64,000 bases of DNA from Parcubacteria group bacterium Gr01-1014_31 (GTDB lineage: Bacteria; Patescibacteriota; Patescibacteriia; Buchananbacterales; GWA2-38-13): the NCBI GenBank assembly GCA_007376135.1, contig VMFR01000001.1, positions 9,259-73,258 on the forward strand, in the 5' to 3' direction. The notes under the pieces are model-generated. The model was not told where the DNA came from. It was given only the letters and a program-made list of their open reading frames with translations, and ran no database searches. Below are positions 4,059 to 61,827 of this stretch, in pieces. The position numbers and the translations under genes are program-made. How positions within the stretch are numbered: position 1 is the first letter of the stretch; each line of letters begins with the position of its first letter.

Positions 4059-4086
4059 CAGCCGCCCTTTGCCGGGCGGTTTTTGT
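4059..4086 (+). terminator. rho-independent terminator after radical SAM gene
   Basis: stem CCGCCC / GGGCGG with 6-nt loop followed by TTTTT. Confidence 0.6.
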
Positions 4087-4106
4087 TTGGGCGTTCCGTC
4101 GGTTTG

Positions 4107-4115
4107 TGGTATAAT
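4107..4115 (+). promoter_or_regulatory. extended -10 element TGgTATAAT upstream of receiver gene
   Basis: TGnTATAAT match ~37 nt upstream of ATG 4152; upstream TTGTTT hexamer is spaced 21 nt (non-canonical). Confidence 0.4.
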
Positions 4116-4151
4116 TATGCCCTAGTATCAACGCGCGCGGGCGCGATTCTT

Positions 4152-4562
4152 ATGGCAACCAAGAGCACGAAGAAGCCGACAACCACGGCGGCGGGCGGCA
4201 AGGCCGTTCTCATCATCGAGGATGATGAATTTTTGGCAAAAATGATGGCCCGGATGCTGGAAGAGGCCGGGCTGCGGTGTACGCTGGCGGGGAACGGCAA
4301 AGAAGGCTTGCGGAAAGCGCAGGCGGATGTCCCGCAGCTCATCATCCTGGACATCATCCTGCCTGATTTGGACGGGTTTGCGATTTTGAGCAAATTGAAA
4401 GCCGCCGCCGCTACCAAAGCGGTTCCGGTCATCATCATTTCCAACCTTGGCCAGGAGGAAGACGTGCAGCAGGGTCTGCGGTTGGGCGCCAAGGACTACA
4501 TCGTAAAGAGCGACCTCAGCCTGGATGCGGTGGTGGCTAAGGTGATGAAGCAACTGAAATAA
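4152..4562 (+). CDS. stand-alone response-regulator receiver domain (CheY-like), likely pilus-associated
   Basis: phospho-acceptor Asp in IILDIILPDLDG, DYIVKSD motif; no output domain; immediately upstream of pilB/pilC. Confidence 0.8.
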   Translation: MATKSTKKPTTTAAGGKAVLIIEDDEFLAKMMARMLEEAGLRCTLAGNGKEGLRKAQADVPQLIILDIILPDLDGFAILSKLKAAAATKAVPVIIISNLGQEEDVQQGLRLGAKDYIVKSDLSLDAVVAKVMKQLK

Positions 4563-4565
4563 CAT

Positions 4566-4654
4566 TTGACTGTTGACCTTTGACCATTGACCGCGTTGAT
4601 GTTGGTCAAATTTCGCCGCTTGTCAAATGTTGCCGGTCAATGGTTAATGGTCAG
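4566..4654. promoter_or_regulatory. array of TTGAC(C) heptads (four tandem 7-bp units) followed by inverted GGTCAA copies, upstream of pilB
   Basis: TTGACTG TTGACCT TTGACCA TTGACCG at 4566-4593, then GGTCAA/GTCAA at 4604, 4622, 4635, 4642(GGTTAA), 4649(GGTCAG). Confidence 0.45.
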
Positions 4655-4655
4655 T

Positions 4656-6350
4656 ATGCACGTATCGGATGAACAACTGAAAGAGGCGCTGGTTTCGCGG
4701 CAGCTGTTGCCCGCGAGCCAGGTGAACGCTGCGTTCGCGAAGGCGGAGGCGCAGCATCTGTCTTTGCGCGAGGTGCTGTTGAACGATGATCTGATCGCCG
4801 ACGAGCACGTGGGCCGACTGATCGCCGACCTGCTGGGGGTCCCGTTCATTAACCTCCGCAAAGTGCAAATACCGGAGGCGGTGCTGCGGTTGATTCCGGA
4901 AGTGGTGGCCAAGAGCCGCCAGGTGATCGCGGTCAAACGCGATCGCGAGGGGTTGACGGTCGCGATGGCGGATCCCGACGACATGGAGGCGGTGGCGCTG
5001 GTGCAGAAGGCGACCGGCGAGCTGGTCACGCCGGCCTTGGCCACCCCGCGCGACCTCGGCGGCGCGTTGTCGCGGTACCGGAAGGGCTTGCAAGAGGATT
5101 TTTCCGCGCTGCTGACGGCGGCCGCGTCGGAAGCGGAAGCTGCCACCAAAGAGCAGGCAGTGGAACAGGCGGAAGCGACGGTAGTGCGCATTGTCGAACA
5201 GCTGCTCGCGTACGCCTATGAGAATAAAGCCTCCGACCTGCATCTGGAGCCGCAGCGCGACGCTCTGGTGGTGCGTTTCCGCATCGATGGCGTCCTGCAC
5301 GAGGTGGTCGCTCTGCCGAAAGCCATCGAACCGCAGATCGTCTCCCGCATCAAGGTATTGTCCAAATTGCGCACCGACGAGCATGCGGCGGCCCAAGACG
5401 GTAAATTTCGGTTCAGCGTTCCGGAAGAGCAGGTGGATGTCCGCGTTTCCATCCTGCCGGTGACCGCCGGTGAAAAAGTGGTCTTGCGGCTGTTATCGTC
5501 CAAGCAGCGGGAATTTTCCCTCGAGGATCTTGGCTTTGGGGCGGGCGATCTGAAAAAAGTGAAACTGGCGTTCAACAAACCGTACGGCATGATCCTGTCC
5601 ACCGGCCCGACGGGTTGTGGCAAGACCACGACGCTCTACGCCATCCTGCAGATCCTCAACAGCCGCGAGATCAATATTTCCACGATCGAAGACCCGGTCG
5701 AGTATGAGATCGCGGGCGTGAATCAGATCCAGGTCAACGCCAAGACGAATCTGACGTTCGCGGCCGGCCTGCGCTCCATCCTGCGCCAGGACCCCGACGT
5801 CATCATGGTCGGGGAGATCCGCGACGAGGAGGCGGCCGGCATCGCGGTTAACGCCGCCATGACCGGCCATCTGGTGCTCTCGACGCTCCACACCAATGAT
5901 GCCGCGACTTCGCTGCCGCGGCTGTTGGACATGCAGGTGGAACCGTTCCTCATCTCCAGCACTGTGAATGTCATTGTGGCGCAGCGTCTGGTGCGGCGCA
6001 TCTGTAGCCAGTGTTTGGTGAGCTACCAGGCCAAGCGCAAGGAGCTTGGGGCGACGCTTTCGCCGGCGCTGGTCACCCGCCATTTCGGAAACCGCGCGTC
6101 GGTGCGGCTGTACAAGGGCAAGGGGTGCCAGGTGTGCGGCGGTACCGGGTACCACGGCCGGGTCGGCATTTTCGAAGTTCTGGAGGTGACGGAGGCGGTA
6201 CGGCGGCTGATCATGGAGCGCGCCAACGCGGATATCATCAAGGCGGAAGCGGTCAAGGAGGGGATGACGACGATGTTGGATGATGGCCTGGCGAAAGCGG
6301 TGCAGGGGGCGACGACCATTGAGGAAGTCCTGCGGGCGACCCGCGAGTGA
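4656..6350 (+). CDS. pilB: type IV pilus assembly ATPase PilB (GspE family)
   Basis: GspII_E N-domain, Walker A GPTGCGKTTT, His/Asp boxes, tetracysteine CSQC...CQVC; start chosen at ATG 4656 (track start 4587 lies in the repeat array). Confidence 0.9.
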   Translation: MHVSDEQLKEALVSRQLLPASQVNAAFAKAEAQHLSLREVLLNDDLIADEHVGRLIADLLGVPFINLRKVQIPEAVLRLIPEVVAKSRQVIAVKRDREGLTVAMADPDDMEAVALVQKATGELVTPALATPRDLGGALSRYRKGLQEDFSALLTAAASEAEAATKEQAVEQAEATVVRIVEQLLAYAYENKASDLHLEPQRDALVVRFRIDGVLHEVVALPKAIEPQIVSRIKVLSKLRTDEHAAAQDGKFRFSVPEEQVDVRVSILPVTAGEKVVLRLLSSKQREFSLEDLGFGAGDLKKVKLAFNKPYGMILSTGPTGCGKTTTLYAILQILNSREINISTIEDPVEYEIAGVNQIQVNAKTNLTFAAGLRSILRQDPDVIMVGEIRDEEAAGIAVNAAMTGHLVLSTLHTNDAATSLPRLLDMQVEPFLISSTVNVIVAQRLVRRICSQCLVSYQAKRKELGATLSPALVTRHFGNRASVRLYKGKGCQVCGGTGYHGRVGIFEVLEVTEAVRRLIMERANADIIKAEAVKEGMTTMLDDGLAKAVQGATTIEEVLRATRE

Positions 6351-6385
6351 TCTTCCGGAGAAAATCAAGGTTAAAAACACAAGGC

Positions 6386-7594
6386 ATGCAATTCGCGTAT
6401 TCGGCAGCCACGGCGGACGGGAAGATGACCCGCGGCGTTGTGGCCGCAGCCAACCAGCGGGCCGCGATCGCGCTGCTTGAACGGCAGCAGCTGGTTGTCG
6501 TGAAGCTGGAGCGCCGTCGTGACGGCAAGGCTCAGGCGCTCTACCGCGTGCCGCTGTTGCAGCGGATGCTTTTGGCGCAGCACCTGTCGACGCTCCTAAG
6601 AGCCGGCGTCAGCTTGCTGGAAGGCCTGCGAGTGGTGCAGGAAGAGGCCCGCTCACGGCGATTACGCAAGCTGTTGGAACGCGTGCGGGTCAAAGTATCG
6701 TCCGGCACCACCTTTGCCGCCGCCCTCGAATCCCAGGGCGGGGCCTTTGACTCCCTATTTACCAGTTTGGTGCGCGTCGGCGAGTCCTCCGGCACGCTGG
6801 AGGAGAATCTTTCCTACCTCGCGGATGAATTGGAGAAACGGATGGCGCTCCACACCAAAGTGCGCTCGGCGTTGACGTATCCGGCGGTGGTCGTCGGCGT
6901 GACGGGCGTGCTGGGCGCGGTCCTCGCGTTCTTCGTATTGCCCAAGATTGTTCCGCTGTTCACCTCGCTCAAGGTGAAACTCCCGCTCTCGACGGAGATC
7001 CTGTTGAGGGTCGCCGGGTTCTCCCGCGACCACGGTATGCTCTCCCTGGCGCTCATCGCCGGCGCCATCATTGCTTTCCGTTTGCTGACCTTGCGGGGAC
7101 CGTTGCGGCGGCAATGGCATTGGTTCTTGCTGCGTTTGCCGGTGGTCGGCCGCATTACGCGAAGTTTGAACCTGGCCAACGCCTGCCGGACCCTGGGGAC
7201 GCTGTTGAAGAGCGGCGTGCCGTTGCTGGAGGCGCTTGATATCACCGCCGGCACACTGGGGAATACGGCGTACCGCGAGGAATTTTCCGCTCTGCGGGAT
7301 GCGGCCGGCACCGGCACCAGCCTCGCTGCAAGCATGGCGCAGCCCTCGCGGCGGAAGCTGTTCCCGCCCTTGACGCTGTCGCTGGTCCGGGTGGGCGAAT
7401 CCAGCGGGAAACTGGACGAGAGTTTGCTCTACCTGAACCGTTTCTACGAACGCGAGGTGGATAATTTAATGAAAGATCTGACGGTCATCCTGGAGCCGAT
7501 GCTGTTGGTGTTCATCGGACTGGTGGTGGCGTTCGTCGCCGGGGCCATCATTACGCCTATCTACCAGATCTCCGGCAGTCTGCGAGTGAGATGA
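6386..7594 (+). CDS. pilC: type IV pilus inner-membrane platform protein PilC (GspF family)
   Basis: two GspF repeats, 3 TM regions; start at ATG 6386 preceded by AAGG. Confidence 0.85.
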   Translation: MQFAYSAATADGKMTRGVVAAANQRAAIALLERQQLVVVKLERRRDGKAQALYRVPLLQRMLLAQHLSTLLRAGVSLLEGLRVVQEEARSRRLRKLLERVRVKVSSGTTFAAALESQGGAFDSLFTSLVRVGESSGTLEENLSYLADELEKRMALHTKVRSALTYPAVVVGVTGVLGAVLAFFVLPKIVPLFTSLKVKLPLSTEILLRVAGFSRDHGMLSLALIAGAIIAFRLLTLRGPLRRQWHWFLLRLPVVGRITRSLNLANACRTLGTLLKSGVPLLEALDITAGTLGNTAYREEFSALRDAAGTGTSLAASMAQPSRRKLFPPLTLSLVRVGESSGKLDESLLYLNRFYEREVDNLMKDLTVILEPMLLVFIGLVVAFVAGAIITPIYQISGSLRVR

Positions 7595-7597
7595 TCT

Positions 7598-9646
7598 ATG
7601 AGGTTTCACTGGCCGCGGCGCAGCGTGGTGGGCATCGACCTTTCTGACCGGTCGATCGAGGCGTTGCAGCTGAAGCGGTCGCTGGGGAAGCCCGCACTGG
7701 CTGCCTACAGCCGGGTGCAGTTGCCGCCGGGTGTCGTTGAGGACGGGCGGATCCTACAGCCGGCCGCGCTGGTGGAACGGGTGCGCCAGCTGCTGCAGAA
7801 AGCGCGTCCGGAGCCCATTAAGGAGCATCTGTGTGTTATCGCCCTGCCGGAATCCCAGGTCTATTCGCATGTGTTTTCGTTGCCCGCGGCGTTCCAGGCC
7901 GAACAGGTGCGGCGGGCAATCCTCCTGGAGGCGGAGCACTTCATGCCCATCCCACTCAGGGAAAGTTATTTGGATTTTCGTCCTATCGGCGTCCGCGGCG
8001 AGTATCAGGAGGTGGCGTTTGCGGCGACCCGGCGCGGCCTGGTGCATACGTACCTTGAGGTTTTCAAGTCCGCCGGGCTCCAGCCTATCGCCTTCGAGCC
8101 GGAATCCGTCAGTCTGGGCCGGTCGCTGGTGCGCCGGACCTTAGGCGACGGGTCGGCGGCTACTCTTATTGCGGATGTGGGTATGCGTACGACCAATGTC
8201 CACCTCGTGCGCCAGGGTGCGGTCATCGGCAGTTTGACGATTCCGCGGGCCGGCGGTCACTTCACTGAGGCGGTCGCCGCGGCCATGAAGATTTCCCCGG
8301 AGGAGGCCGAGACCCGCAAACTGCAGGTCGGGTTCGACGAGCGGCGGGGCGATGCCGTCCTGGTGTCCGCGCTCTCGTCGGCAGCGGTGCCGATCATCGC
8401 CGAGGTCAAGCGGTTCGTGGCGTACGCGGTCGAACATCGCGGCGTAACCGTACGCCAGGTGGTGTTGGCCGGCGGGTCCGCCTTGCTGCCGGGGTTCCCG
8501 GAATTTTTGTCGGCCCAGTTGAGTTTACCCGTCAGCGTCGGGGAGCCGTTGGCGCGCCTTTGGCAGGGCCGCGTGAAGCTGCCCGAACGCCAGGGCGTGC
8601 TGTATGGCAATGTCATCGGGCTGGCGCTGCGCGGGCTGCACCGCGACCCGGTTGCGGCGGGACCAAATCTGCTGATTCAGGCGCAGGACCGCATCCGCAG
8701 CGAACAACTGCAGCATTTTTTGACCGTACCGAAATTCGATCGGCGGCTGTGGGGAATGGTCGCCGCACTGGTATGCTCCCTGCTGGTGCTGGGGGGGCTG
8801 TTGTGGTACCGATCGGCAACGCCGGCGCCAAACCCGCGCTACGTGGTGGAATTTTCTCCGTTGGACTGGGCCAAGAGTAAGGCGCCGCAGACGACGGAGC
8901 TGGCTATTTCCTTTGCGTCCGCGGAGGCTGTTCCCGCCAATGCGCTTCCCGCGCGATTCCTGGAAGGAGTATTCACCGCCACGGACGTTTTCGCGGCTAC
9001 GGCGTCCGCCACCGTTGCCACCACGGACACGCTGGTGCGATTGGTGAACACGACCGATCGGGACCAGCCACTGGTGTCCAATACCCGGCTGGAGGCAAAT
9101 GACGGAACCACCCTGCGTCTTACCTCCGGGGTCATCGTGCCCGCGGACGGTACTTTGACCATTGCCGTTCCCCTCCCGCCGGACGGTGGAGTGAGCGGGC
9201 GTTTGCGACTGCCGGGGTTGTCGGTTGATGCCCAGCGGTCCATCTACGCCGAAGTCATCCTCCCCGCCGCCGTCATCGGGGCAGGCGATGTCGCCGCGGC
9301 CCGCGAGCGGCTGTTTGCCTCAGCGCGGCAGTTGGCAACCGATGCCTTCGTTGTTCAACAGGAAGCTGAGGAGTACCTGCTGCCGATATTCCCCCCGCTT
9401 GAGGGGGAGGCGCTGACGACGTCGTTGCCAGTCGGAGCATTCGCCGTCGAATTTTCGGCCACGCTGCGCCAACCCTTCGGAGGCATCGTGGTGTTCAAGA
9501 ATGACCTGGTATCGGCGATCACCGCCGCGTTTGGCCCCCTGGAGCAGCCGCTCCAGTCCGTCAGTTTCACGCTTGGCAAGCTGGATTTGGCGGAGCGCCG
9601 GATTTCTGTTATAATAACCACAGCCAGCCCGCCTGTGGAAAAGTAA
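7598..9646 (+). CDS. PilM-like actin-fold ATPase fused to PilN-like TM segment and a ~280-aa C-terminal extracytoplasmic domain
   Basis: N-terminal VVGIDLSDRSIEAL... PilM/FtsA-like fold; single TM (LWGMVAALVCSLLVLGGLLWY) near residue 390. Confidence 0.7.
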   Translation: MRFHWPRRSVVGIDLSDRSIEALQLKRSLGKPALAAYSRVQLPPGVVEDGRILQPAALVERVRQLLQKARPEPIKEHLCVIALPESQVYSHVFSLPAAFQAEQVRRAILLEAEHFMPIPLRESYLDFRPIGVRGEYQEVAFAATRRGLVHTYLEVFKSAGLQPIAFEPESVSLGRSLVRRTLGDGSAATLIADVGMRTTNVHLVRQGAVIGSLTIPRAGGHFTEAVAAAMKISPEEAETRKLQVGFDERRGDAVLVSALSSAAVPIIAEVKRFVAYAVEHRGVTVRQVVLAGGSALLPGFPEFLSAQLSLPVSVGEPLARLWQGRVKLPERQGVLYGNVIGLALRGLHRDPVAAGPNLLIQAQDRIRSEQLQHFLTVPKFDRRLWGMVAALVCSLLVLGGLLWYRSATPAPNPRYVVEFSPLDWAKSKAPQTTELAISFASAEAVPANALPARFLEGVFTATDVFAATASATVATTDTLVRLVNTTDRDQPLVSNTRLEANDGTTLRLTSGVIVPADGTLTIAVPLPPDGGVSGRLRLPGLSVDAQRSIYAEVILPAAVIGAGDVAAARERLFASARQLATDAFVVQQEAEEYLLPIFPPLEGEALTTSLPVGAFAVEFSATLRQPFGGIVVFKNDLVSAITAAFGPLEQPLQSVSFTLGKLDLAERRISVIITTASPPVEK

Positions 9647-9718
9647 GATCACTGGCGGGAGGACGAGAATTATAATTTCAGCGGCAGCAGTTGCCGCCGC
9701 AACCTAACGTATTTATTT

Positions 9719-10234
9719 ATGGCGAGTGCGCGCGCGGTGCTCCGCAGGCAGAACGCGGGGTTTACCCTCATTGAGCTGCTCATTGTCATTGGCATCATTT
9801 CGGTGCTGGCAGCTATTATCTTCGTTGCCGTTGACCCGGCGCGGCGCTTTGCGGAAGCTCGGAACGCTCAACGTTGGAGCGAAGCGAACGCCGTTTTGAA
9901 TGCGATCTTGAAGTGTACCGTCGACAATAACGGCACCCTCCCATCTAATCTGAATACGGCGGCGAGCGGCACGTACTTCATGATCGGGACCGGTGCTGAC
10001 GCGACCAGCTGCACCTCCCAGGCGACGTCGGCCGTTTTGGACCTCGGCGCCTCCACCTGCGAGGGGGCAACGACCCTGGCACCCGATTACATGGCCTCGA
10101 TGCCGGTGGACCCGACGGGGAGCGGGTGGACGGCGGCCAAGTCCGGCTACTACATCATCAAATCCACTTCCGGACGCATCACGGTGGGTGCATGCGCGGC
10201 AGAGCGCGGCGAAGCCATCAGCGTCACGCGATAA
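9719..10234 (+). CDS. type IV pilin / pseudopilin (prepilin-type N-terminal cleavage/methylation domain)
   Basis: leader MASARAVLRRQNAG then FTLIELLIVIGII with Glu at +5. Confidence 0.85.
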   Translation: MASARAVLRRQNAGFTLIELLIVIGIISVLAAIIFVAVDPARRFAEARNAQRWSEANAVLNAILKCTVDNNGTLPSNLNTAASGTYFMIGTGADATSCTSQATSAVLDLGASTCEGATTLAPDYMASMPVDPTGSGWTAAKSGYYIIKSTSGRITVGACAAERGEAISVTR

Positions 10235-10250
10235 AACCAGTATTGCCCTC

Positions 10251-10283
10251 AAGACGGCCCGCAGTGGGCCGTCTTTTGGTTTT
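10251..10283 (+). terminator. rho-independent terminator after pilin gene
   Basis: stem GACGGCCC / GGGCCGTC, 5-nt loop, TTTTGGTTTT. Confidence 0.7.
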
Positions 10284-10402: not shown

Positions 10403-10424
10403 TTTGACCGTTGTACTACCGGGT

Positions 10425-10937
10425 ATGTCTGCCAAAGTCGTGTTCATCGTTGCCCAGCGTGATTTTCGTGATGAGGAGTTGTTGCAGACGCGCGAGGTAC
10501 TGGAGCGTTTCGGCGTGCAAACGTATGTCGCCGCGGATTCCCAAGAGCCGGCGCACGGAAAATTCGGTTCGCTGGTCTTGCCCAGTCTGACCATCCAGGG
10601 GGTCTCGGCGCGGCACTTCGACGGGATCATTTTCGTCGGCGGTCCGGGCGCGCGCGGCCTGTTCGAGAAGCGGACCGTGTTGCGGCGCGCCCAGGAGTTT
10701 GCTCAGGCCAACAAGGTGGTCGCGGCTATCTGCAGCGCACCGACCATCCTGGCTAACGCCGGCCTGCTGATGGGGAAGCGGGCAACCGCGTTCCCCACCG
10801 AGGAGACGGTGCTACGCGATCACGGCGCGGAGTATACCGGCCTGCCGGTCGAAGCGGACGGGAACCTCATCACGGCCAAGGATTCCACCTACGCGCGCGA
10901 TTTTGCCGAGCGCATTGCCTGGGAGCTAGGACGGTAG
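10425..10937 (+). CDS. DJ-1/PfpI family protein (class I glutamine amidotransferase-like)
   Basis: IIFVGGPGA and nucleophile-elbow AAICSAP motifs; start at internal ATG 10425 (MSAKVVFIV). Confidence 0.75.
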   Translation: MSAKVVFIVAQRDFRDEELLQTREVLERFGVQTYVAADSQEPAHGKFGSLVLPSLTIQGVSARHFDGIIFVGGPGARGLFEKRTVLRRAQEFAQANKVVAAICSAPTILANAGLLMGKRATAFPTEETVLRDHGAEYTGLPVEADGNLITAKDSTYARDFAERIAWELGR

Positions 10938-11024: not shown

Positions 11025-11636
11025 ATGCCATACACACTGCCCAAATTGGCCTACGCTCTTGATGCGCTGGAGCCGCATCTTGACGCGCGGACGATGGAGA
11101 TCCACCACGGCAAACACCACCAGGCGTACGTCGACAATCTCAATAAGGCCCTGGAGTCCTATCCCGAACTCCAGCGGTTGACCCCGGAAGAGCTGGTGGC
11201 GCAGCTTTCTACGGTGCCGGAAGCCGCGCGCACCGCCGTCCGCAACAATGCCGGGGGACACCTCAACCACAGTTGGTACTGGGAGTGGATGGCGCCGAAA
11301 GCCGCAGGAAAGCCTGACGGAAAATTGGCGAAAGCGTTCGAACAAGAGTTTGGCGGGTTCTCCGGGTTCCAGGAGCAGTTTACCAAGGCCGGCATGACCC
11401 GTTTCGGCAGCGGTTGGGCGTGGCTCGTCATCAAAGAGGGAAAACTTTCGGTTCTCTCGACGGCCAACCAGGACAATCCGTTGACCGACGGCTTTACCCC
11501 GCTGCTGGGCTGCGACGTGTGGGAGCACGCCTACTATTTGAAGTATCAGAACCGCCGGGTTGATTATTTAAAGGCGTGGTGGAGCGTGGTGAACTGGGGA
11601 AACGTCGAAACGCGCTTCGCGAAAACGCAGCGGTAA
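11025..11636 (+). CDS. sodA: superoxide dismutase, Mn-type signature
   Basis: [20 protein letters not shown] (GG = Mn-type), [19 protein letters not shown]; close to E. coli SodA. Confidence 0.9.
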
Positions 11637-11660: not shown

Positions 11661-11900
11661 ATGCCCGCCGTCACCATCTATTCCACCCCGACCTGTCCGT
11701 ACTGCAAGATGGCAAAAGCCTACCTGCAGAAAAAGAACGTCCCGTTCACCGACGTGGATGTGTCCGTCGATGCGGCGAAGGCCGAAGAAATGATCGAAAA
11801 ATCAGGGCAACTGGGCGTGCCGGTGTTGGATATCGGCGGCCGTATCGTTATCGGGTTCGATCAGCCGCAGATCGAAGCGGCCCTGGTTGAAATGAAATAA
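11661..11900 (+). CDS. glutaredoxin-family protein (CPYC)
   Basis: VTIYSTPTCPYCKMAK... GVPVLDIGG; start at ATG 11661. Confidence 0.8.
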   Translation: MPAVTIYSTPTCPYCKMAKAYLQKKNVPFTDVDVSVDAAKAEEMIEKSGQLGVPVLDIGGRIVIGFDQPQIEAALVEMK

Positions 11901-11916
11901 ACGTTGCGTTCGCGGT

Positions 11917-12480
11917 ATGCGCCGGAATTATTCCCTTCTTTTTTTCGCCGCGGCATTCGTTACCTTGGCGAGTGTTGGATGCACGCGCACGGCATTGACG
12001 CCGAACGTTGCGCCGCCTGATGCATCCGCACCCGCGGTGCCGTCCAACGGGGAACGCGTTCCCGAAGCGGCGGGCAGCCCGCTCGAGCAGCCCCAGCGGG
12101 CCACCGCGGATACGCCCGTGCCTCCCGCGGTATCCAGCTATCGGCCGTTCACGAAAGATGCCTACGAACAGGCCAAGGCCGACGGACGGCCGATCCTGCT
12201 GTATTTTTACGCCAACTGGTGCCCGTTGTGCGCCGACCAGGAACCGCAGGTGGCCGAACTTTTCCGCAGTCCGGCGATGGCCGATTGGGGGGTGGCGGCG
12301 TTCCGCGTCAACTACAACGACAGCGACAGTGACAGTGATGAGCGGGACTTGGCGGCGGAACTCGGCGTGAACTACCAGCATACCTTTTTTACATTCGACC
12401 GGAGCGGCAAGCAGGTGTGGCGGGCGACCGGCACGCAAACGCCCGCGCAGCTGCGTTCTCGTCTGGAAGCGATCCGGTAA
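11917..12480 (+). CDS. secreted/lipoprotein thioredoxin-like protein (TlpA-like, WCPLC)
   Basis: N-terminal signal ...LASVGC; thioredoxin fold ILLYFYANWCPLC. Confidence 0.7.
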   Translation: MRRNYSLLFFAAAFVTLASVGCTRTALTPNVAPPDASAPAVPSNGERVPEAAGSPLEQPQRATADTPVPPAVSSYRPFTKDAYEQAKADGRPILLYFYANWCPLCADQEPQVAELFRSPAMADWGVAAFRVNYNDSDSDSDERDLAAELGVNYQHTFFTFDRSGKQVWRATGTQTPAQLRSRLEAIR

Positions 12481-12494
12481 CGGCTTGGTTTGGT

Positions 12495-13331
12495 ATGGAG
12501 ACGCTCACTCTGCCATCGTTGCTCGCGCTTTCCGCATTTTCCGGTGCGTTGACCATCGCCGCGCCCTGTATCCTATCGCTGTTGCCCGTGATGCTGGGTT
12601 CAGCCTTGGGGCAGCACCGTCTGCGGCCGCTCTTCATCGTGCTGGGGCTGGTGTCCAGCTTCACCGCCTTCGGCCTGGCGTTCGCGACCTTCACGCGATT
12701 TTTCGGCTTGAACCGAGTGCAATTCCGCCAGATCGCCGTCTGGCTGATCTTTTTTTTCGGGTTGGCGCTGCTGTTCCCGCGCCAGTATGAGCGGATCTCC
12801 GCCGGACTGAAATCCTTGCGTTCCCGCCTTATGCTCCGAATGCGCGGCGGCAATCTTCCCGTGCCGACTTTGCACCGGCCAAGGGCCGGTTTCCGCGGCG
12901 CGTTCCTGCTCGGCGCCTCCATGGGTTTGGCCTGGGTGCCGTGTGCCGGACCGGTGCTGGGTGTGATCTTCACGATCGCTGCTTCGCAGGAAGCCTACGG
13001 AACTGCGGCGCTGCTGTTTGCAGCATACGCAGTCGGTGCCGGCGTGCCGTTGTTGGTGATCGGGTACGGCGGCAATTGGATCGCGGCCAAGACCAGATTT
13101 CTGGCCGGGAAGACCGAACTGGTGCGCCGCATCGCCGGGGCGCTGCTGGCAACCATGGGCCTGCTGATGATCACCGAATTGGACCGCCGGCTGGAAATAT
13201 CCGCTTTCGGCCTGTTCCCGAATACGGTAGGTATCGAAGAGCGCCTGCTGGAAGAGCAGATGGATGAGTTGCCCATGGGGGAACTCGTGGACCCGGGCCA
13301 GAAAATGCCGGTGCTGCCGCGTCAGCCATGA
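12495..13331 (+). CDS. ccdA: cytochrome c-type biogenesis / thiol-disulfide transporter CcdA (DsbD family)
   Basis: two conserved TM Cys motifs APCILSLLP and VPCAGPVL; 6 TM; start at ATG 12495. Confidence 0.75.
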   Translation: METLTLPSLLALSAFSGALTIAAPCILSLLPVMLGSALGQHRLRPLFIVLGLVSSFTAFGLAFATFTRFFGLNRVQFRQIAVWLIFFFGLALLFPRQYERISAGLKSLRSRLMLRMRGGNLPVPTLHRPRAGFRGAFLLGASMGLAWVPCAGPVLGVIFTIAASQEAYGTAALLFAAYAVGAGVPLLVIGYGGNWIAAKTRFLAGKTELVRRIAGALLATMGLLMITELDRRLEISAFGLFPNTVGIEERLLEEQMDELPMGELVDPGQKMPVLPRQP

Positions 13332-14470
13332 AGTCTATGCATCTTCGCGGGTGGTTGAACATCCTGATTAGTATCGCGGTCATCGTCGCGGTCGTGACGG
13401 TCGGCTACCGGCTGATCTATGCGTCCAATCCGCTCAAGCAAGCGGGAGCATTGTTCTCCAGCCTTTTTGACCGTTCGTCCATGCTCCATTCCAGCTTGCG
13501 GCGCGAAGCCGTGCCCGCCCCCGAGTTGGCCGGTATTCAGCAGTGGTTCAACACCGCCGGCAATACGCCCTTGCGCATCTCCGACCTGCGCGGAAAGGTC
13601 GTCATCGTTGATTTTTGGACCTATAGCTGCATCAACTGCATCCGGACCATGCCGTATATCACGGCCTGGGACAAAAAATACCGCGATCGCGGTTTGGTGA
13701 TTATTGGCGTGCATACTCCGGAATTCGAATTCGAAAAGGTCCCCGCGAACGTCGCGGGGAAGATCAAGGAGTACGGCATTGAATACCCGGTGGCGCTGGA
13801 TAGCCGCTACGATACCTGGAACGCCTACGGTAACCAATTCTGGCCGGCCAAGTACTTCATCGACCATGAGGGTAACATCGTCTGGCGCCATTTCGGGGAA
13901 GGCGCGTACGAGGAATCGGAAGCAAAGATCCAGGAGCTGTTGCGCAATGCCGGTTTGCTCGATGATGTCCCGCCGACGGCAGCCGTCAGCCCGAATGTCG
14001 ATTTTTCCCTGATCAAGACGCCGGAACTGTATTTCGGCTATCGCCGGCTGCTGTCGCCGTCCCAGCGGCGGCATTTCGCGCCTGACCAGCTTCGCCCGGG
14101 CGAGGTCAACCGGTACGCCGCGCCGCCAACGTTACAGGAGAACGAATTTACCCTGGTCGGTGATTGGCTGATGGAGGATGAGTACGCCGAGCTGAGATCG
14201 GCGCAGGGGGCGATCCTTATCCGTTACTTCGCCACCAAGGCGAATCTGGTGCTGGAGGCGACCCCTGCTGCCAGGGCGAGCGTGCTCGTGGATGGCGAGC
14301 CGCTCCGGGGCGCGGGTCGCGGGAGCGATGTGCGCACAGACGGAACCGTGGCCATCGGCGAACCAAGACTGTATAATCTGACCGTTGCCGGGGACGACCT
14401 GGGCTGGCATACTCTGGAGGTGCGGTTCGACCGGCCCGGCATCCGTGCGTTCTCGTTCACCTTCGGCTGA
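13328..14470 (+). CDS. membrane-anchored TlpA/ResA-like thiol-disulfide oxidoreductase (redoxin, DipZ C-terminal-like) with ~140-aa C-terminal extension
   Basis: ATGA overlap with ccdA stop; TM anchor; VVIVDFWTYSCINC...YFIDHEGNIV. Confidence 0.75.
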   Translation: MKSMHLRGWLNILISIAVIVAVVTVGYRLIYASNPLKQAGALFSSLFDRSSMLHSSLRREAVPAPELAGIQQWFNTAGNTPLRISDLRGKVVIVDFWTYSCINCIRTMPYITAWDKKYRDRGLVIIGVHTPEFEFEKVPANVAGKIKEYGIEYPVALDSRYDTWNAYGNQFWPAKYFIDHEGNIVWRHFGEGAYEESEAKIQELLRNAGLLDDVPPTAAVSPNVDFSLIKTPELYFGYRRLLSPSQRRHFAPDQLRPGEVNRYAAPPTLQENEFTLVGDWLMEDEYAELRSAQGAILIRYFATKANLVLEATPAARASVLVDGEPLRGAGRGSDVRTDGTVAIGEPRLYNLTVAGDDLGWHTLEVRFDRPGIRAFSFTFG

Positions 14471-14571
14471 ACTGGGTGGCGACCGTTGGCAGACCAACCC
14501 GTTGTGTTATATTATTCACCAGCAGCTTATGCTGCCGGGGAAAATCTCCCCGCGATAATTATGTGTGTGGT

Positions 14572-15390
14572 ATGCGAAAATATTTCGCGTTCATGGCGCT
14601 TGGCGCCGCATTGATCGCGGCCGCTTGCACTCGTCAAGTGCCGCCGCCCCAGGCCGGGGGTAACGACAATGACCAGGCCGCCGTCAGCCCGACGCCCGAT
14701 GTTAGGGCGGCAAAGACGGTCGTCCAGATCCTGAACTTGCGCAGCAAAGCGTTGGCCGGCCAACCGTTGGAGGTGACCTGGCAGGTCAAACCGGAGGATG
14801 GCGCGACCGGTACCATCAGCCATACCGCGTTCCACTACGATGTTATCTCCCATCCGGGCGTGTTGGGCCAGGACGTAACTCCCGCCGCCGCCGGCTACAA
14901 GGAGTTGACGCCGGATTTTGCCCAGGGCGAGTTCCAGGTACCGCGGTCGTTCTCGGCGAAATTGACGCCGCAAGCCGGGAAATTGTACGTTCGGGCGCAC
15001 ACGATCATCGAGGGAAAGCAGTACTGGACCGACGAGGCCGTGGTGGAGGTGGTATCCGACCCGGCAATGATGGGCGAGGGCGGAGACCAGGACGATGAAA
15101 CGGTGAGCGGCGAGGTGAAAACCCTGACCATGACCGCAGAGACTTGGGAATTCGAGCCGTCGACCATCCGGGTGAAGAAAGGCGACCGCGTCAAATTGGT
15201 GGTTACCAGCAAGGACGTTACGCATGGATTGATACTGCCGCAGTACAAGATCGACGAGAAGCTCGAGCCGGGCAAGACGGTGACCGTCGAATTCACCGCC
15301 GATACCGCGGGTGAATTCCCGTTCTGGTGCAATGTACCGTGCGGGGAAGGCCACCGCGAGATGCGCGGTACGCTGATTGTGGAAGAGTAA
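14572..15390 (+). CDS. lipoprotein with C-terminal cupredoxin domain carrying a complete CuA-type site (H-x34-C-x3-C-x3-H-x2-M)
   Basis: signal ...LIAAAC; VTHG...FWCNVPCGEGHREM matches the CuA ligand spacing of COX2/NosZ; no oxidase subunit I nearby. Confidence 0.65.
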   Translation: MRKYFAFMALGAALIAAACTRQVPPPQAGGNDNDQAAVSPTPDVRAAKTVVQILNLRSKALAGQPLEVTWQVKPEDGATGTISHTAFHYDVISHPGVLGQDVTPAAAGYKELTPDFAQGEFQVPRSFSAKLTPQAGKLYVRAHTIIEGKQYWTDEAVVEVVSDPAMMGEGGDQDDETVSGEVKTLTMTAETWEFEPSTIRVKKGDRVKLVVTSKDVTHGLILPQYKIDEKLEPGKTVTVEFTADTAGEFPFWCNVPCGEGHREMRGTLIVEE

Positions 15391-15421
15391 TAAAATTTTT
15401 CGCGCCGACGCGCGTTCCTTT

Positions 15422-15553
15422 ATGGGGTACCTGTGCACTGAGTGCGGCTACTCCACGGAGCATCCAGGGCATTGTCCCGAGTGCGAGTTACTACTGCAGG
15501 AGATTTGCGAGACCTGCGGGCAGTTGCTGGCCGAGTGCGAGTGCGACGATTAG
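15422..15553 (+). CDS. 43-aa Cys-rich peptide (3x CxxC + CxC), zinc-ribbon-like
   Basis: MGYLCTECGYSTEHPGHCPECELLLQEICETCGQLLAECECDD; below track size cut-off; weak RBS. Confidence 0.3.
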   Translation: MGYLCTECGYSTEHPGHCPECELLLQEICETCGQLLAECECDD

Positions 15554-24039: not shown

Positions 24040-25400
24040 ACCAGTCGTACGGTCGCGGGAACTAGGACGCTCGCCAGAGAAGGTCCGAATCTACGGTCAC
24101 GCTGTGGGGTGTTCACCCTGTGGCGTGTTGCTGTTTACGCCATGGGCTACCGTCGGCGTATACCGGTACGGCTGCCGGTGCTTGAGCATGGCGTAGATGA
24201 TGTCCACGAGCCGCCGCTTGAGGCAGCAAAGCGCGTGGACCTTGGTCTTGCCCTCGGCGAGCTTCTTCTGGAAGTACTGGCGCGCGGCCGGATTCCCCGT
24301 GGGACTGATCTGGCTCAACGCGATGCGGTGCAGTGCCAGGTTGAGCCGACGGTTGCCGGCGCGGGTCTTGCGGTGCCGCACGGTCTTGCCCGAGGAACGT
24401 TCGCGCGGGCTCAACCCCGCGTACTTGGCGAGCGCTGACGGCGACCGGAAGCGTACGATGTCGCCCACCTCAGCGAGCACCAGCACCGCGAGCACCGGGC
24501 CGCAGCCGCTCATCGTGTCCAGGTACTGGCCCGAAGCGCGTAGGCACTCACGAAGGTCATCCTCGAGATCTTGGATCTGCTCGCGGCAGTAGGCCAGCCG
24601 TTCGATCTTGCGTCGGATTTGCCGCGCCAGCAGCACCGGGTCGCCCGGGACGTCGGTGGCCTTGCGGGGCACGGGGCAGCGGCGCCAGTAGCGCAGGGCC
24701 TTCTGTGAGAAAGGGTCGGTGAACTTGTCCCGGTAGGCGGAGTTGTACGCGGCATGGAGCAGCCGGTGGAGCTGGTTCTTCATTCGGGTCTGCTCCTTGA
24801 CGAGGAAGCTGCGGTCCAGCGTCAGCTCCTTGAGCGCCTTGGCGGTTTCCTCGGCCGGCGTTACGCTGTAGCTGGGCAAGCTGTCCATCCGCTGGATCAA
24901 GACTCGCGCGACGCCCAACGCATCCAGAGAATCCGTCTTCTCTGGATGCGTTTCGTGCCGGCGCAGCCGGTCCACCAGGATCGGCGCGACGGTCTTGACC
25001 GGCAGCCCGGCATCAGCCAGGTACCGGGCGAGCCGGAACCCGTAGCCGGTGCTGTCCTCGAGCGCGACCTGCGGGGTCAGCCCGCGCTCGGTCGCTTCAC
25101 GTTCAATAGCCGCAACGAAAGTTTGAAAATCTTCGGCCGTGTTGCCGACGGTCAGCTCCAGCAGGCGGTGGCCGAAGCAGTTGGTGAGAACGGCGGTGTG
25201 GCGGTCCTTGTGGACGTCGATGCCGACGTACAGGCAGCGGTCGGGCGCGGGTGCGTCGCGCAATTCCAAGGCACCACCCAGGCGGGTGCGCATAGGCTCA
25301 CTCGGGTGAGGGAATTAGCGACTCACCAGCGAAACTCCAGTATCCAGGCCTTCGCCCCGCGCGGGCAGGGCTGGCGATACTCTATTTGTTCATGCTGGTG
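24040..25400 (-). mobile_element. IS110-family insertion sequence (boundaries approximate; no terminal inverted repeats expected)
   Basis: single transposase ORF with IS110 N-terminal DEDD domain and C-terminal helix-hairpin-helix region, flanked by ~60 and ~100+ nt non-coding sequence, inserted between a surface-protein gene and uvrC. Confidence 0.6.
24097..25293 (-). CDS. IS110-family transposase
   Basis: LYVGIDVHKDRHTAVL... N-terminal motif; GCGPVLAVLVLAEVGDIVRF... C-terminal motif. Confidence 0.85.
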   Translation of the reverse strand: MRTRLGGALELRDAPAPDRCLYVGIDVHKDRHTAVLTNCFGHRLLELTVGNTAEDFQTFVAAIEREATERGLTPQVALEDSTGYGFRLARYLADAGLPVKTVAPILVDRLRRHETHPEKTDSLDALGVARVLIQRMDSLPSYSVTPAEETAKALKELTLDRSFLVKEQTRMKNQLHRLLHAAYNSAYRDKFTDPFSQKALRYWRRCPVPRKATDVPGDPVLLARQIRRKIERLAYCREQIQDLEDDLRECLRASGQYLDTMSGCGPVLAVLVLAEVGDIVRFRSPSALAKYAGLSPRERSSGKTVRHRKTRAGNRRLNLALHRIALSQISPTGNPAARQYFQKKLAEGKTKVHALCCLKRRLVDIIYAMLKHRQPYRYTPTVAHGVNSNTPQGEHPTA

Positions 25401-27312: not shown

Positions 27313-28326
27313 ATGCAAAAAAAATTACCCCTCGTCGTTGCGTTCAGCGTGCTGCTGTGGGCAGCCGCTGCCTGTACCCCGGCCCAGCGCTTGTCGTGGG
27401 TACCGGCCAACGGGCCGGCCGCTTCGCCGACCCCGCACCCGGTGTCGCTCCCTTCCTTGCGGGCCAAGCCGCTGGATGGCGGGGATTTCAAGCTCGGCAA
27501 AGTGCTTTCCGCCAATGAGGCCTACACGCGGTACTCTATTACCTATCGCAGCGGGGAATTGAAAATCTCCGGCATCATGAACGTGCCCAACGGGAAGGGG
27601 CCGTATCCGCTGCTGCTGCTTAATCATGGCTACATCGACCCGGCCGTCTATACCAACGGGCGCGGTCTGAAGCGCGAGCAGGACTATCTGGTGAGGGAGG
27701 GCTACGTCGTGCTGCACTCCGATTACCGCAACCACGCGGGTTCCGACCGGGAACCCGACCCCGAACAGCGTTTCCGGATGGGCTATGCAGAGGACGTAAT
27801 GAACGCCATCGCCGCTGTCCGCGCCGCGAATCTTTCGTTCGTGGACGCGACGCGGGTGGGGATGCTCGGCCATTCGATGGGCGGCGGCGTGACGTTGCAG
27901 TTGATGGCGGCCAAGCCCGACCTCATTGCGGCGGCGGTGCTGTTCGCGCCGGTGTCGGGCGACGTGCGGGACAATTTCGAGCGCTGGACCAAGCAGCGGC
28001 CCAGCACCACGGAAAAGATCATCGCTGCGTACGGCCGTCCGGAAGATAACCCCGCGTTCTGGGACCATATGTCGCCGTTGACCTACGTGAATGAATTTCT
28101 CACTCCGGTGCAGATCCACCATGGCACCGATGATGACGACGTGCCGCTCGAGTGGTCCGACCGGCTCTACACCCGGCTTCAGGCGGCGGGAAAAGAAAGC
28201 CAATTCTTCGTCTACCGCGGCGAACCGCACGAATTCATCAACGCCTGGCCGGCGGTGATGCGCCGGACGACGCAGTTTTTCGATACCCACCTGCAGTTGC
28301 CTACCATTCCATCAGCAGCACGCTGA
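27313..28326 (+). CDS. lipoprotein alpha/beta-hydrolase (S9 peptidase/dienelactone hydrolase-like)
   Basis: signal ...LLWAAAAC; nucleophile elbow GHSMGG; C-terminal His region. Confidence 0.65.
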   Translation: MQKKLPLVVAFSVLLWAAAACTPAQRLSWVPANGPAASPTPHPVSLPSLRAKPLDGGDFKLGKVLSANEAYTRYSITYRSGELKISGIMNVPNGKGPYPLLLLNHGYIDPAVYTNGRGLKREQDYLVREGYVVLHSDYRNHAGSDREPDPEQRFRMGYAEDVMNAIAAVRAANLSFVDATRVGMLGHSMGGGVTLQLMAAKPDLIAAAVLFAPVSGDVRDNFERWTKQRPSTTEKIIAAYGRPEDNPAFWDHMSPLTYVNEFLTPVQIHHGTDDDDVPLEWSDRLYTRLQAAGKESQFFVYRGEPHEFINAWPAVMRRTTQFFDTHLQLPTIPSAAR

Positions 28327-28624
28327 GGAACGCGAGGGCTAGGCCGATGCGGTTAGCGAGCGTCAATTCTTCGCGGAAGAGGTAGGCGCCGACCAGCACG
28401 GCGGCGGCGAGGTTGGCGACCGTGAAGACGGTAATGGCCCGAGCCAGTCCTTCCTGGCGGAGCGAGAACGCCCAGAAGACCGATCCGGCGAAGTACACGC
28501 CCAGCCCAAGGACCAGCAAGGTGGTGCGCTCGGTGCGCGACCACTGCTTGAACAGCACGTCGCCGGCGACCTCCAGGATGACTGCCGCCGCGATCAAGGC
28601 GATGAACATCAGCCGGGTTTGCAT
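28301..28624 (-). CDS. SMR-family small multidrug-resistance-type transporter (4 TM)
   Basis: 107 aa, conserved Glu in TM1 (ILEVAGD), four hydrophobic segments; -10 TATAAT 8 nt upstream of ATG (near-leaderless). Confidence 0.6.
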   Translation of the reverse strand: MQTRLMFIALIAAAVILEVAGDVLFKQWSRTERTTLLVLGLGVYFAGSVFWAFSLRQEGLARAITVFTVANLAAAVLVGAYLFREELTLANRIGLALAFLSVLLMEW

Positions 28625-28651
28625 ACGCTTGGATTATAGCATGCGGGCCGG

Positions 28652-28680
28652 TTGAAAAATCGCGCGTTTTGTGCTATTAT
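28652..28680 (+). promoter_or_regulatory. sigma70-like promoter TTGAAA-N17-TATTAT for rsmI
   Basis: hexamers at 28652-28657 and 28675-28680. Confidence 0.55.
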
Positions 28681-28698
28681 TGCAGCACATTATTTGTT

Positions 28699-29364
28699 AT
28701 GGGAACTCTGTACGTGGTGGCCACACCCATCGGGAATCTGGCCGACATTACGCAGCGCGCGATCGACACCCTGCGCGCAGCCGACCTGATCGCCTGCGAG
28801 GATACGCGCCACACCTCGATCCTGCTGCGCCACCTTGGCATTGCCGCGCCGCTCACCAGCTACCATCAGCATAGCGGTCCGGTAAAAATCGAGCAGGTCG
28901 TGCGCGCCCTGGGAGAAGGGAAGAAGGTCGCGGTCGTGACGGACGCCGGCACGCCGGGTGTGAATGACCCTGGCGGCAAGCTGGTAGCTGCCGCGGCCGC
29001 TGCCGGGAATCAGATCGTCCCCATCCCCGGCCCGTCGGCAATCGTTGCCGCGCTTTCCGTGTCGGGGCTCCCGGCCGATGATTTCCGTTTTCTTGGTTTT
29101 TTGCCGCACAAGAAGGGGCGGCAGACGGCCATCGCCGGCATCGCGGCGGCCGAGACGACCGTAGTGTTCTACGAGTCCACTCATCGCATTCTGAAAACAC
29201 TGCAGCAGTTGGCCGACGCGCTCACTGCGGATCGCCCCGTCGTGGTGTGCAGGGAATTGACCAAGCAGTTTGAAACCGTCTACCGCGGCAGTTGCCAAGA
29301 GGTACTGCAGCAGTTGCAGGCCGGCGTTACCAAAGGGGAGTTTGTCGTTGTAGTTGGATTCTGA
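28699..29364 (+). CDS. rsmI: 16S rRNA (cytidine1402-2'-O)-methyltransferase
   Basis: GTLYVVATPIGNLADIT...LIACEDTRHT tetrapyrrole-methylase fold; start ATG 28699. Confidence 0.85.
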   Translation: MGTLYVVATPIGNLADITQRAIDTLRAADLIACEDTRHTSILLRHLGIAAPLTSYHQHSGPVKIEQVVRALGEGKKVAVVTDAGTPGVNDPGGKLVAAAAAAGNQIVPIPGPSAIVAALSVSGLPADDFRFLGFLPHKKGRQTAIAGIAAAETTVVFYESTHRILKTLQQLADALTADRPVVVCRELTKQFETVYRGSCQEVLQQLQAGVTKGEFVVVVGF

Positions 29365-29379
29365 TCTGTTCTCGGCTCG

Positions 29380-29790: not shown

Positions 29791-29816
29791 AACTTTGTTC
29801 TGATTTATTGCTACCT

Positions 29817-30260: not shown

Positions 30261-30315
30261 AGAAATACTTGTGAGGAGTAACAATTCACCTTCATCCTAG
30301 CATATTTTTTCTGAC

Positions 30316-61823: not shown

Positions 61824-61827
61824 AGGG

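Follow-up and report, generated by a model that had tools for sequence, protein, structure and literature searches.

To our knowledge, CuA centres are textbook parts of two enzymes only, cytochrome c oxidase and the reductase of nitrous oxide (N2O). A stand-alone CuA-like centre is carried by PmoD of methanotrophs, a membrane-tethered extracytoplasmic cupredoxin in which the site is formed across a homodimer and the ligands are arranged differently. Here we describe a 272-amino acid (aa) lipoprotein with a CuA-type domain, and the thiol-redox gene cluster in which it is encoded, from Parcubacteria group bacterium Gr01-1014_31 (taxid 2017183), a groundwater member, with a tiny genome, of the candidate phyla radiation (CPR) represented by a metagenome-assembled genome (MAG). 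The analysed DNA, hereafter the window, is a 64-kb stretch of a 539,480-bp contig of this genome. In the reading that we favour, and that we hold to be somewhat probable, the cluster makes and keeps functional a stand-alone electron-transfer lipoprotein with a CuA centre, which is tethered to the outer side of the cytoplasmic membrane and matured by a thiol relay.

Several described systems resemble parts of this cluster. Compared with PmoD, to which it can be likened by description, the window protein has all its ligands in one chain and in a COX2-like arrangement. Subunit II of the Thermus ba3 oxidase (2cua, 1ehk_B) shares the cupredoxin fold, the ligand set and the spacing, but the window protein lacks a transmembrane (TM) helix, in place of which it has a lipid anchor, a linker and an additional domain at the N-terminus, and there is no subunit I gene nearby. 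CupA of Streptococcus pneumoniae (2mry, 4f2e), a Cu(I) chaperone, is also a membrane-anchored protein of cupredoxin fold with a Cys-based binuclear copper site; its ligands are Cys and Met only, whereas in the window protein both His are retained, together with the spacing of CuA. Genes termed 'nosZ-like' have been found in 21 of 33 MAGs of DPANN archaea, with a conserved CuA motif and no CuZ, and in hosts with no other oxidase or electron transport chain subunits (Zhang et al., mBio 2024, PMC10936187). Complementation of a P. aeruginosa nosZ mutant with such a gene failed, and in the published tree the proteins are placed between Cox2 and clade II NosZ (PMC10936187). Going by the description in that paper, they are like the window protein in being extracytoplasmic and in having the CX3CX3H motif of CuA but no CuZ, and the best partial NCBIfam matches of the window protein, which are NosZ C-termini, are in line with that tree. 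The window protein differs in that it is bacterial, carries a domain with a His triad and is encoded in a block of thiol-redox and superoxide dismutase (SOD) genes absent from the paper's account. Orphan CuA proteins of ultra-small archaea are thus already on record (PMC10936187), and they very probably belong to the same family as the CuA domain of the window.

On the thiol side, the two CuA cysteines of CoxB in Bradyrhizobium have to be held in reduced form by the membrane-anchored thioredoxin TlpA until copper is inserted (PMC6669012). This TlpA-ScoI-PcuC pathway likewise has an anchored extracytoplasmic CxxC protein of thioredoxin (Trx) fold with a CuA client (PMC6669012); in the window, however, the redoxins are not TlpA orthologues, CcdA is encoded in the same cluster and Sco and PcuC are missing. 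DipZ of Mycobacterium tuberculosis (Rv2874; 2hyx) has the same combination of a CcdA-type domain, a Trx-like domain and a C-terminal Thioredoxin_10 domain. It is a single polypeptide, whereas the window has two translationally coupled genes, and the genomic link to a CuA protein seen here is not known for DipZ. As far as could be found, the two-domain variant of the CPR, the link between split DipZ and CuA, and the His-triad family are new; the literature yielded nothing specific on COX2 or CuA in Parcubacteria or the CPR.

The CuA Domain of the Lipoprotein

By sequence and structural model, the C-terminal domain is a cupredoxin like that of ba3 subunit II with a complete CuA ligand set. It matches Cupredoxin_1 (PF13473; E = 8e-13, 48.7 bits against a cut-off of 27) and, marginally, COX2 (PF00116; 23.7 bits against a cut-off of 22), and in a phmmer search the alignment of residues 184-272 spans the CuA domain of subunit II of the Thermus thermophilus ba3 oxidase from one end to the other (E ~ 1e-12). 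A preliminary description of the locus, made from the sequence alone, had recognised an exact CuA spacing here. Indeed, H218-x34-C253-x3-C257-x3-H261-x2-M264 falls column for column on the ba3 ligands, with the same 34 residues between the first His and the first Cys. The AlphaFold2 (AF2) model of the lipoprotein has a predicted local distance difference test score (pLDDT) of 82 overall and above 90 in both folded domains. In a Foldseek comparison the modelled CuA domain superposes on 1ehk_B with a root mean square deviation (rmsd) of 1.1 A across 89 residues, 35% of them identical, and CuA domains of NosZ are the other top matches. All five ligands are invariant in orthologues (12-sequence alignment A2), and the set is intact in 91 of the 99 family open reading frames (ORFs) from 83 loci, 77 having the exact x34 spacing. 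The rest of the protein consists of a lipoprotein signal, a disordered linker and soluble sequence with no TM helix beyond the cleavable signal. Across the alignments, conservation of the lipobox Cys is 90% or more, and the orthologues have lipoboxes of the L-x-G/A-C type.

At least 519 relatives of the CuA domain were found by a pattern scan of the GTDB species representatives, compared with 44 proteins only in a word-indexed search. Most of the best 80 come from DPANN archaea (Woese-, Micr- and Nanoarchaeota, Norongarragalinales) and from the CPR (Uhr-, Kerfeld-, Peregrini-, Magasanik- and Roizmanbacteria), and about ten from Terriglobia. Identity of the window CuA domain to many of the DPANN proteins is 50-64% in the same scan. 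A typical family member is a secreted or anchored protein of approximately 150 aa with a CuA domain only; full-length orthologues that include the N-terminal domain are few (P0003-P0007 and the one at locus L007, 40-63% identity).

Many DPANN and CPR loci carry two CuA paralogues side by side or within 1-2 kb (L023, 9845-10686; L032, 9809-10934; also L025, L047, L060 and L086), and some second copies are ligand-less, as in the cases with a C...C.MGMG pattern at L018 (5503-5916) and L048 (8854-9291). At three Terriglobia loci, the gene of the small secreted CuA protein is directly followed by an ORF of about 450-475 aa (L055, 10211-11638; L059, 11370-12734; L084, 3609-4967). Its product has a twin-arginine-like signal (NRRDFLKIG...) and a GVGxRG motif, and by these motifs looks like a periplasmic dehydrogenase of the Gfo/Idh/MocA type. 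This hints that in respiring bacteria the CuA family may serve as a soluble electron acceptor.

Absence of an Oxidase or N2O Reductase from the Window

In NCBI the lipoprotein is named 'cytochrome c oxidase subunit II' (TSC76846.1). Such an annotation, together with a COX2 score just over the cut-off and an inspected genome portion of 64 kb, could mean that the protein truly is subunit II of an oxidase, or part of a NosZ, and that the gene of the catalytic partner lies in another part of the genome. The protein scores 44.5 bits with the CoxB equivalog TIGR02866 (cut-off 147.7) and 57-65 bits with the NosZ models (cut-offs 625-700), the latter over the C-terminal ~95 positions only. It also has a lipid anchor and an extra 120-aa domain in place of the TM helices of subunit II. 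Membership in the CoxB family was rejected on the score and the missing helices, and membership in NosZ because a 272-aa protein matches only the C-terminal end of that model.

Pfam searches covered most window ORFs of at least 100 aa (precomputed for approximately 33-55 kb) and were complemented by motif scans. No COX1, NosZ, Sco, PCuAC or P1B-ATPase was found in the window by these means, in agreement with the preliminary description, which had seen no oxidase subunit I or N2O reductase in the 64 kb. No window ORF has more than six predicted TM segments, the motif scans revealed no signature of heme-copper oxidase (HCO) subunit I, and no coding-frame ORF has the CxxxCP motif of Sco in a Trx fold or the PCuAC pattern H-x10-M-x21-H-x-M. 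Neither COX1 nor NosZ is encoded within ±10 kb of the 83 family loci. Among single-amplified genomes, subunit I of an oxygen reductase (HCO or bd) was present in 3 of 492 from Patescibacteria and in none of 81 from DPANN archaea (Beam et al., PMC7507113), where the CuA family is commonest. For the genome as a whole, the absence of an oxidase is an expectation from this lineage-level literature, by which the prior for a subunit I is very low (PMC7507113). On the model scores and the architecture, and with 64 kb of the genome and ±10 kb at the family loci covered, a split cox locus was rejected, a catalytic partner encoded elsewhere being judged extremely improbable.

A Proposed Thiol Relay and a Split DipZ

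The five linked genes from glutaredoxin to lipoprotein that the preliminary description had delineated were all recovered at the same positions on the + strand (Table 1). The glutaredoxin is recognised by TIGR02196 (GlrX_YruB; 94.3 bits against a cut-off of 88.55) and no signal peptide is visible in its sequence; it is a candidate for the electron donor side of the relay. CcdA has five predicted TM segments and exactly two Cys, one in an APC and one in a VPC motif, and is 71-72% identical to its counterparts at L001, L002 and L007, the loci of three close relatives.

Two extracytoplasmic redoxins accompany CcdA, and both had been likened to TlpA. The first, a lipoprotein kept in L001 and L002, does have a Trx fold, a lipobox and a WCPLC motif, but it has no match to the TlpA equivalog NF047696, and its matches to DsbE, ResA and DsbD-C are weak and below the cut-offs. 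Its motif is CxxC and not the CxxxCP of Sco. The second had been called TlpA/DipZ-like. Of these names the latter is borne out, since residues 62-380 match the ectodomain of M. tuberculosis DipZ (PDB 2hyx/5cyy) with E = 5e-63 and with the SCINC motif aligned, whereas with the TlpA equivalog it reaches 27.7 bits against a cut-off of 230. It also resembles the structures of Etrx, ResA and YkuV. The TGA of the CcdA gene and the ATG of this redoxin gene overlap as ATGA at 13328-13331, as read in the sequence and as the preliminary description had claimed. Because a homologue of the DipZ ectodomain is in this way translationally coupled to CcdA, the two genes form a split DipZ, and the same two-gene split is found in L001, L002, L007 and the woesearchaeal locus L014.

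Gene Neighbourhoods of the CuA Family

ORFs within 4 kb of the CuA gene were clustered for the 83 loci. Genes for CcdA/DsbD_TM proteins were found near the CuA gene at 15 loci, DsbA-like Thioredoxin_4 proteins at 12, a second CcdA-like family at 10, DoxX at 10, P-type ATPases at 10 (six of the proteins with the CPC motif of copper and heavy-metal pumps), a small Trx-like protein at seven, SOD at six and glutaredoxin at five. At least one thiol-redox gene lies within 4 kb at 32 of the 83 loci. When the ±10 kb surroundings were scanned with hidden Markov models (HMMs), the frequency of thiol-redox genes was 11.3 per 100 kb in the 2 kb next to the CuA gene and 1.8-4.7 per 100 kb at 4-10 kb, a density 3-5 times higher close to CuA-family genes. 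Nearly all of the SOD (5 of 6), DoxX (10 of 11) and DsbA-like (11 of 13) genes fall within 2 kb, and the SOD genes so placed are in five other loci. The pumps among the neighbours also fit a biogenesis reading.

Among the individual loci, L014 is the most informative. Its order is overlapping CcdA and DipZ-ectodomain genes, DoxX and CuA, with a glutaredoxin gene 3 kb off, and the CcdA and DipZ-ectodomain genes are 38% identical to those of the window. A CcdA gene directly adjoins the CuA gene in L075 and L079. The close relatives at L001, L002 and L007 keep the cluster, or whatever part of it their contigs span. This synteny alone is weak, because the relatives are close and UvrB and pilus genes are conserved as well; the neighbourhood evidence from distant lineages is independent of it. 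The proposal of the preliminary description that reductants of the CcdA/TlpA type prepare the CuA cysteines is supported by the density of thiol-redox genes and by the archaeal locus L014.

A block of other genes surrounds CuA at several DPANN loci (L036, L040, L047, L056, L060, L062, L078 and L086). It comprises a second CcdA-like gene (SfLAP/DsbD_TM), a gene for an ATP-cone protein, a VIT1 iron/manganese transporter gene and unannotated ORFs.

A number of points weigh against the favoured reading. No thiol-redox gene lies within 4 kb at 51 of the 83 loci. The enrichment is inflated because the loci are not independent of one another in phylogeny, and the seeds of the HMMs were taken from the zone close to CuA. 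CcdA and DipZ systems serve many other substrates. Ahead of the CuA gene there is a gap of 101 nucleotides (nt) with a promoter-like motif at 14486-14513, so that co-transcription with the relay genes is not assured; the motif is of the sigma-70 type, and three such sites in the region compare with 1.8 ± 1.5 expected, which makes it weak evidence. The N-terminal domain of the lipoprotein is found with ligand-less partner domains too, and the orphan status covers 64 kb of a 539-kb contig and ±10 kb at the 83 relatives.

An alternative is that the relay would be a general reductant of the envelope, comparable to the pneumococcal CcdA-Etrx system that feeds MsrAB or to mycobacterial DipZ, and the CuA lipoprotein merely a neighbour with its own promoter, uncoupled from it. 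The possible promoter in the intergenic gap, the likeness of the DipZ-ectodomain protein to Etrx, ResA and YkuV, the CuA loci lacking a thiol-redox gene and the synteny that takes in unrelated genes such as UvrB and those of the pilus would all be accommodated. We nevertheless regard this explanation as unlikely, considering that the density of thiol-redox genes falls with distance from CuA across both the CPR and DPANN, that the order CcdA, DipZ ectodomain and CuA recurs in an archaeon, that CcdA adjoins CuA at two further loci, and that no other obvious extracytoplasmic Cys-dependent substrate, such as methionine sulfoxide reductase or cytochrome c, is encoded in the window.

The recurrent DsbA-like genes, 11 of them within 2 kb of CuA, raise a further alternative in which electrons flow the other way. 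CuA would then oxidise the thiol system, taking electrons from DsbA-like or Trx-fold proteins and passing them to O2 or another external acceptor, so that disulfide formation or thiol:oxidant turnover could proceed with no quinones or respiratory chain. The potential of CuA is far above those of thiol/disulfide couples, and CPR and DPANN organisms are without the electron transport chains that normally reoxidise DsbA and DsbB (PMC7507113). No O2-reducing site was identified here, except possibly the His-triad domain, and CuA itself, with its coordination saturated, is poorly reactive with O2. With CcdA and DipZ being reductive in all characterised cases, such an oxidising role is very unlikely.

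The N-Terminal His-Triad Domain

The N-terminal part of the lipoprotein (aa 46-168), which the preliminary description had missed, is a beta-sandwich of an undescribed family. It has no Pfam match at E <= 1 and is predicted to fold as an Ig-like beta-sandwich (AF2 pLDDT 91.5), for which Foldseek gave generic Ig-like matches only in the PDB (E > 1e-3). Weak Foldseek matches suggestive of superoxide reductase were judged not meaningful. An exhaustive HMMER search delineated a family of 347 cluster representatives, often with 2-7 tandem copies of the domain (members P0057-P0202; P0064 of 966 aa and P0100 of 988 aa are examples of arrays). Conservation is 89-99% at W, T, S, Y, F, R, W and E positions when 194 copies of the domain are compared. 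The three His of the window protein (H84, H88 and H143) are all present in 126 of these domains, all missing in 45 and partly present in 23. Such an all-or-none pattern is what residues of one shared site would show, and the simplest candidate is a site for metal.

The domain partners tie the family to copper and electron-transfer proteins. Among 128 members scanned, the fusions are to Cupredoxin_1 (27), plastocyanin/azurin-type domains (9), COX2 (5), multicopper oxidase (2), DOMON (2), cytochrome c (1) and CusF (1). The triad occurs whatever the partner domain, ligand-less ones included, and every scored repeat of the tandem arrays bears it (5-6 per protein). Four kinds of C-terminal partner were observed: CuA, T1-like, a ligand-less cupredoxin-like type ('YYGGLDF...SYWP') and an 'HPxHT...HDH' type. 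Since the triad is independent of the partner and present in every scored repeat, it appears to bind metal as a module in its own right and not to form a catalytic site dependent on CuA. The N-terminal domain, whose family is repeatedly fused to copper proteins, probably binds metal, namely copper. The idea that its His form a catalytic type-2 copper site coupled to CuA was downgraded, as the triad is found equally with ligand-less partners and in arrays.

A probable copper-binding module of this kind also bears on whether the lipoprotein might handle copper instead of electrons, as a chaperone, buffer or sequestering protein similar to CupA, with Cu(I)/Cu(II) bound at the Cys/His/Met site and at the triad so as to supply copper or confer tolerance to it. 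His-triad arrays of up to seven domains, the CusF and multicopper oxidase fusions, and CPC-type copper ATPases beside family members at six loci are all compatible with this, as are weak similarities to CupA (2mry/4f2e; E = 0.004) and to CopI. The likeness to the CuA domains of ba3 and NosZ is, however, far stronger (E ~ 1e-12; rmsd 1.1 A). The ligands and their spacing are those of redox CuA, not of the C...CxMxM site of CupA, with both His and the Met invariant in A2 and the full motif intact in 91 of 99 ORFs, and the window contains no copper ATPase or copper regulator. We therefore consider a copper-handling function distinctly unlikely.

Layout of the Cluster

The features of the cluster are listed in Table 1. 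From SOD to the second redoxin the genes overlap or stand 14-24 nt apart, the gap between SOD and glutaredoxin being 24 nt, and uvrB and then uvrA follow downstream of the cluster. The SOD and DJ-1 genes were not picked up in the preliminary description. They are also upstream of the cluster in L002, the sole relative with upstream sequence. The cluster proteins are 42-75% identical in L001 and L002, and the block is kept in part in L007. With the block conserved in these three relatives, the eight Cys of the small peptide described below conserved and the CuA ligands intact in 91 of 99 ORFs, the gene arrangement is more than chance.

Table 1. Positions in the window of the thiol-redox and CuA genes, their parts and the context genes upstream
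Feature	Position	Strand	Basis and remarks
Terminator-like hairpin ahead of the DJ-1/PfpI gene	10251-10275		
DJ-1/PfpI family protein (context gene)	10404-10937	+	Pfam PF01965, E = 5e-33
Fe/Mn superoxide dismutase (context gene)	11025-11636	+	Pfam Sod_Fe_N, Sod_Fe_C; NCBI TSC76841.1
Glutaredoxin-like protein, CPYC, YruB family, cytoplasmic	11661-11900	+	PF00462, E = 2e-20
Thioredoxin-fold lipoprotein, extracytoplasmic	11917-12480	+	Lipobox LASVGC, WCPLC; Thioredoxin_2 and Thioredoxin matches
CcdA/DsbD_TM, membrane thiol-disulfide electron conduit	12495-13331	+	DsbD_TM and DsbD_2 above cut-offs
Membrane-anchored redoxin and Thioredoxin_10 protein, CINC	13328-14470	+	Pfam Thioredoxin_10 (PF17991), E = 2e-31; Redoxin
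Sigma-70-like promoter motif, TTGGCA-16-TATATT with TG	14486-14513	+	Consensus scan, 10/12 matches
CuA lipoprotein, 272 aa	14572-15390	+	Lipobox Cys19; C-terminal Cupredoxin_1, COX2
CuA lipoprotein, signal peptide with lipobox (Cys19)	14572-14628	+	Read from the sequence
N-terminal beta-sandwich domain, aa 46-168, His triad H84/H88/H143	14707-15075	+	No Pfam match; AF2
C-terminal CuA-type cupredoxin domain, aa 181-272	15112-15390	+	Predicted ligands H218 (15223-15225), C253 (15328-15330), C257, H261, M264
Eight-Cys peptide, 43 aa, cytoplasmic	15422-15553	+	No signal peptide; hypothetical protein in NCBI

The 43-aa peptide that the preliminary description had seen to follow immediately, with four Cys pairs, is a real gene and a conserved partner of the cluster. 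Its pattern CxxC-x9-CxxC-x7-CxxC-x6-CxC is zinc-ribbon-like, and all eight Cys are kept in L001 (3971-4102) and L002 (10396-10527). Zinc-ribbon matches in Pfam are sub-threshold only and NCBIfam gave no match. A homologue search with the peptide returned itself alone, and a regular-expression scan found it in L001 and L002 only.

In L002 the SOD gene is separated from that of glutaredoxin by a gene for a Crp/Fnr-type regulator (cNMP_binding and HTH_Crp_2; 5845-6522), which is absent from the window and might regulate the block in response to redox state or oxygen. Directly upstream of the redox block of the window, at 4083-10234, lies a type IV pilus set (response regulator, PilB-like ATPase, PilC, PilM fusion and pilin), and this synteny is kept in L002.

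Other Features of the Window

By the Pfam searches described above, the other genes of the window are housekeeping genes, those of the type IV pilus, an IS110-family transposase gene and hypothetical ORFs. Rfam and tRNA scans of the 64 kb found no tRNA, rRNA or Rfam family at the gathering threshold. The transposase (DEDD_Tnp_IS110 and Transposase_20; 24097-25293, - strand) is encoded in an otherwise housekeeping region. The GC content dips to 0.56, from about 0.62, at 28001-30300 and 51696-52094. Three ORFs with low GC content at third codon positions (GC3, 0.35-0.44) and no Pfam match, at 29380-29790 (-), 29817-30284 (-) and 51696-52094 (+), may be foreign or may encode fast-evolving small membrane proteins. 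A 589-aa ORF (60186-61955, -) has a ThyX (Thy1) domain at residues ~425-550 only and a long unannotated N-terminal extension, and its start codon may be miscalled. A 151-aa ORF (27-482, +) with a GC3 of 0.83, a CEYCCG motif and no Pfam match may be truncated at the window edge.

Proposed Function and Its Meaning

In the favoured reading of a CuA lipoprotein matured by the thiol relay, reducing equivalents would pass from the cytoplasmic glutaredoxin/thioredoxin pool to the two Cys of CcdA and on to the extracytoplasmic CxxC proteins. By analogy, these would hold C253 and C257 of the apo-protein as a dithiol in oxidising surroundings, so that two copper ions could be inserted. The His-triad domain may take up copper or pass it on, standing in for the Sco and PCuAC chaperones missing from the window, and the mature CuA would act as a one-electron carrier outside heme-copper oxidase and N2O reductase. 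The genes that recur beside CuA are those of SOD, DJ-1 and glutaredoxin in the window and those of DoxX, SOD and DsbA-like proteins at other loci. This company suggests that the protein helps the envelope to deal with oxygen or oxidants, and speaks less for energy conservation or respiration.

A broader proposal, which we put forward tentatively and judge unlikely, is that an extracytoplasmic redox module independent of respiration is common to CPR bacteria and DPANN archaea. It would consist of a stand-alone CuA protein, fed or matured by CcdA/DipZ, through which electrons move one at a time between the thiol pool and a partner outside. That partner might conceivably be O2, reactive oxygen species or redox proteins of the host cell, with the His-triad copper domain added in this lineage. 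If true, CuA would have a third biological role besides those in cytochrome oxidase and N2O reductase, and the His-triad domain would be either the place of catalysis or an integral means of acquiring copper that substitutes for Sco and PCuAC.

An intact CuA domain is present in hundreds of ultra-small CPR and DPANN genomes without respiratory chains, and a gene kept in such streamlined genomes likely matters to the cell. The split-DipZ pairing, the recurrent neighbours (SOD, DoxX, DsbA-like proteins and copper ATPases) and the His-triad family turn a gene mis-annotated as COX2 or nosZ-like into a biochemical hypothesis that is testable with recombinant proteins. It bears on how presumed anaerobic fermenters cope with oxygen and on how a CuA centre may be assembled without Sco or PCuAC.

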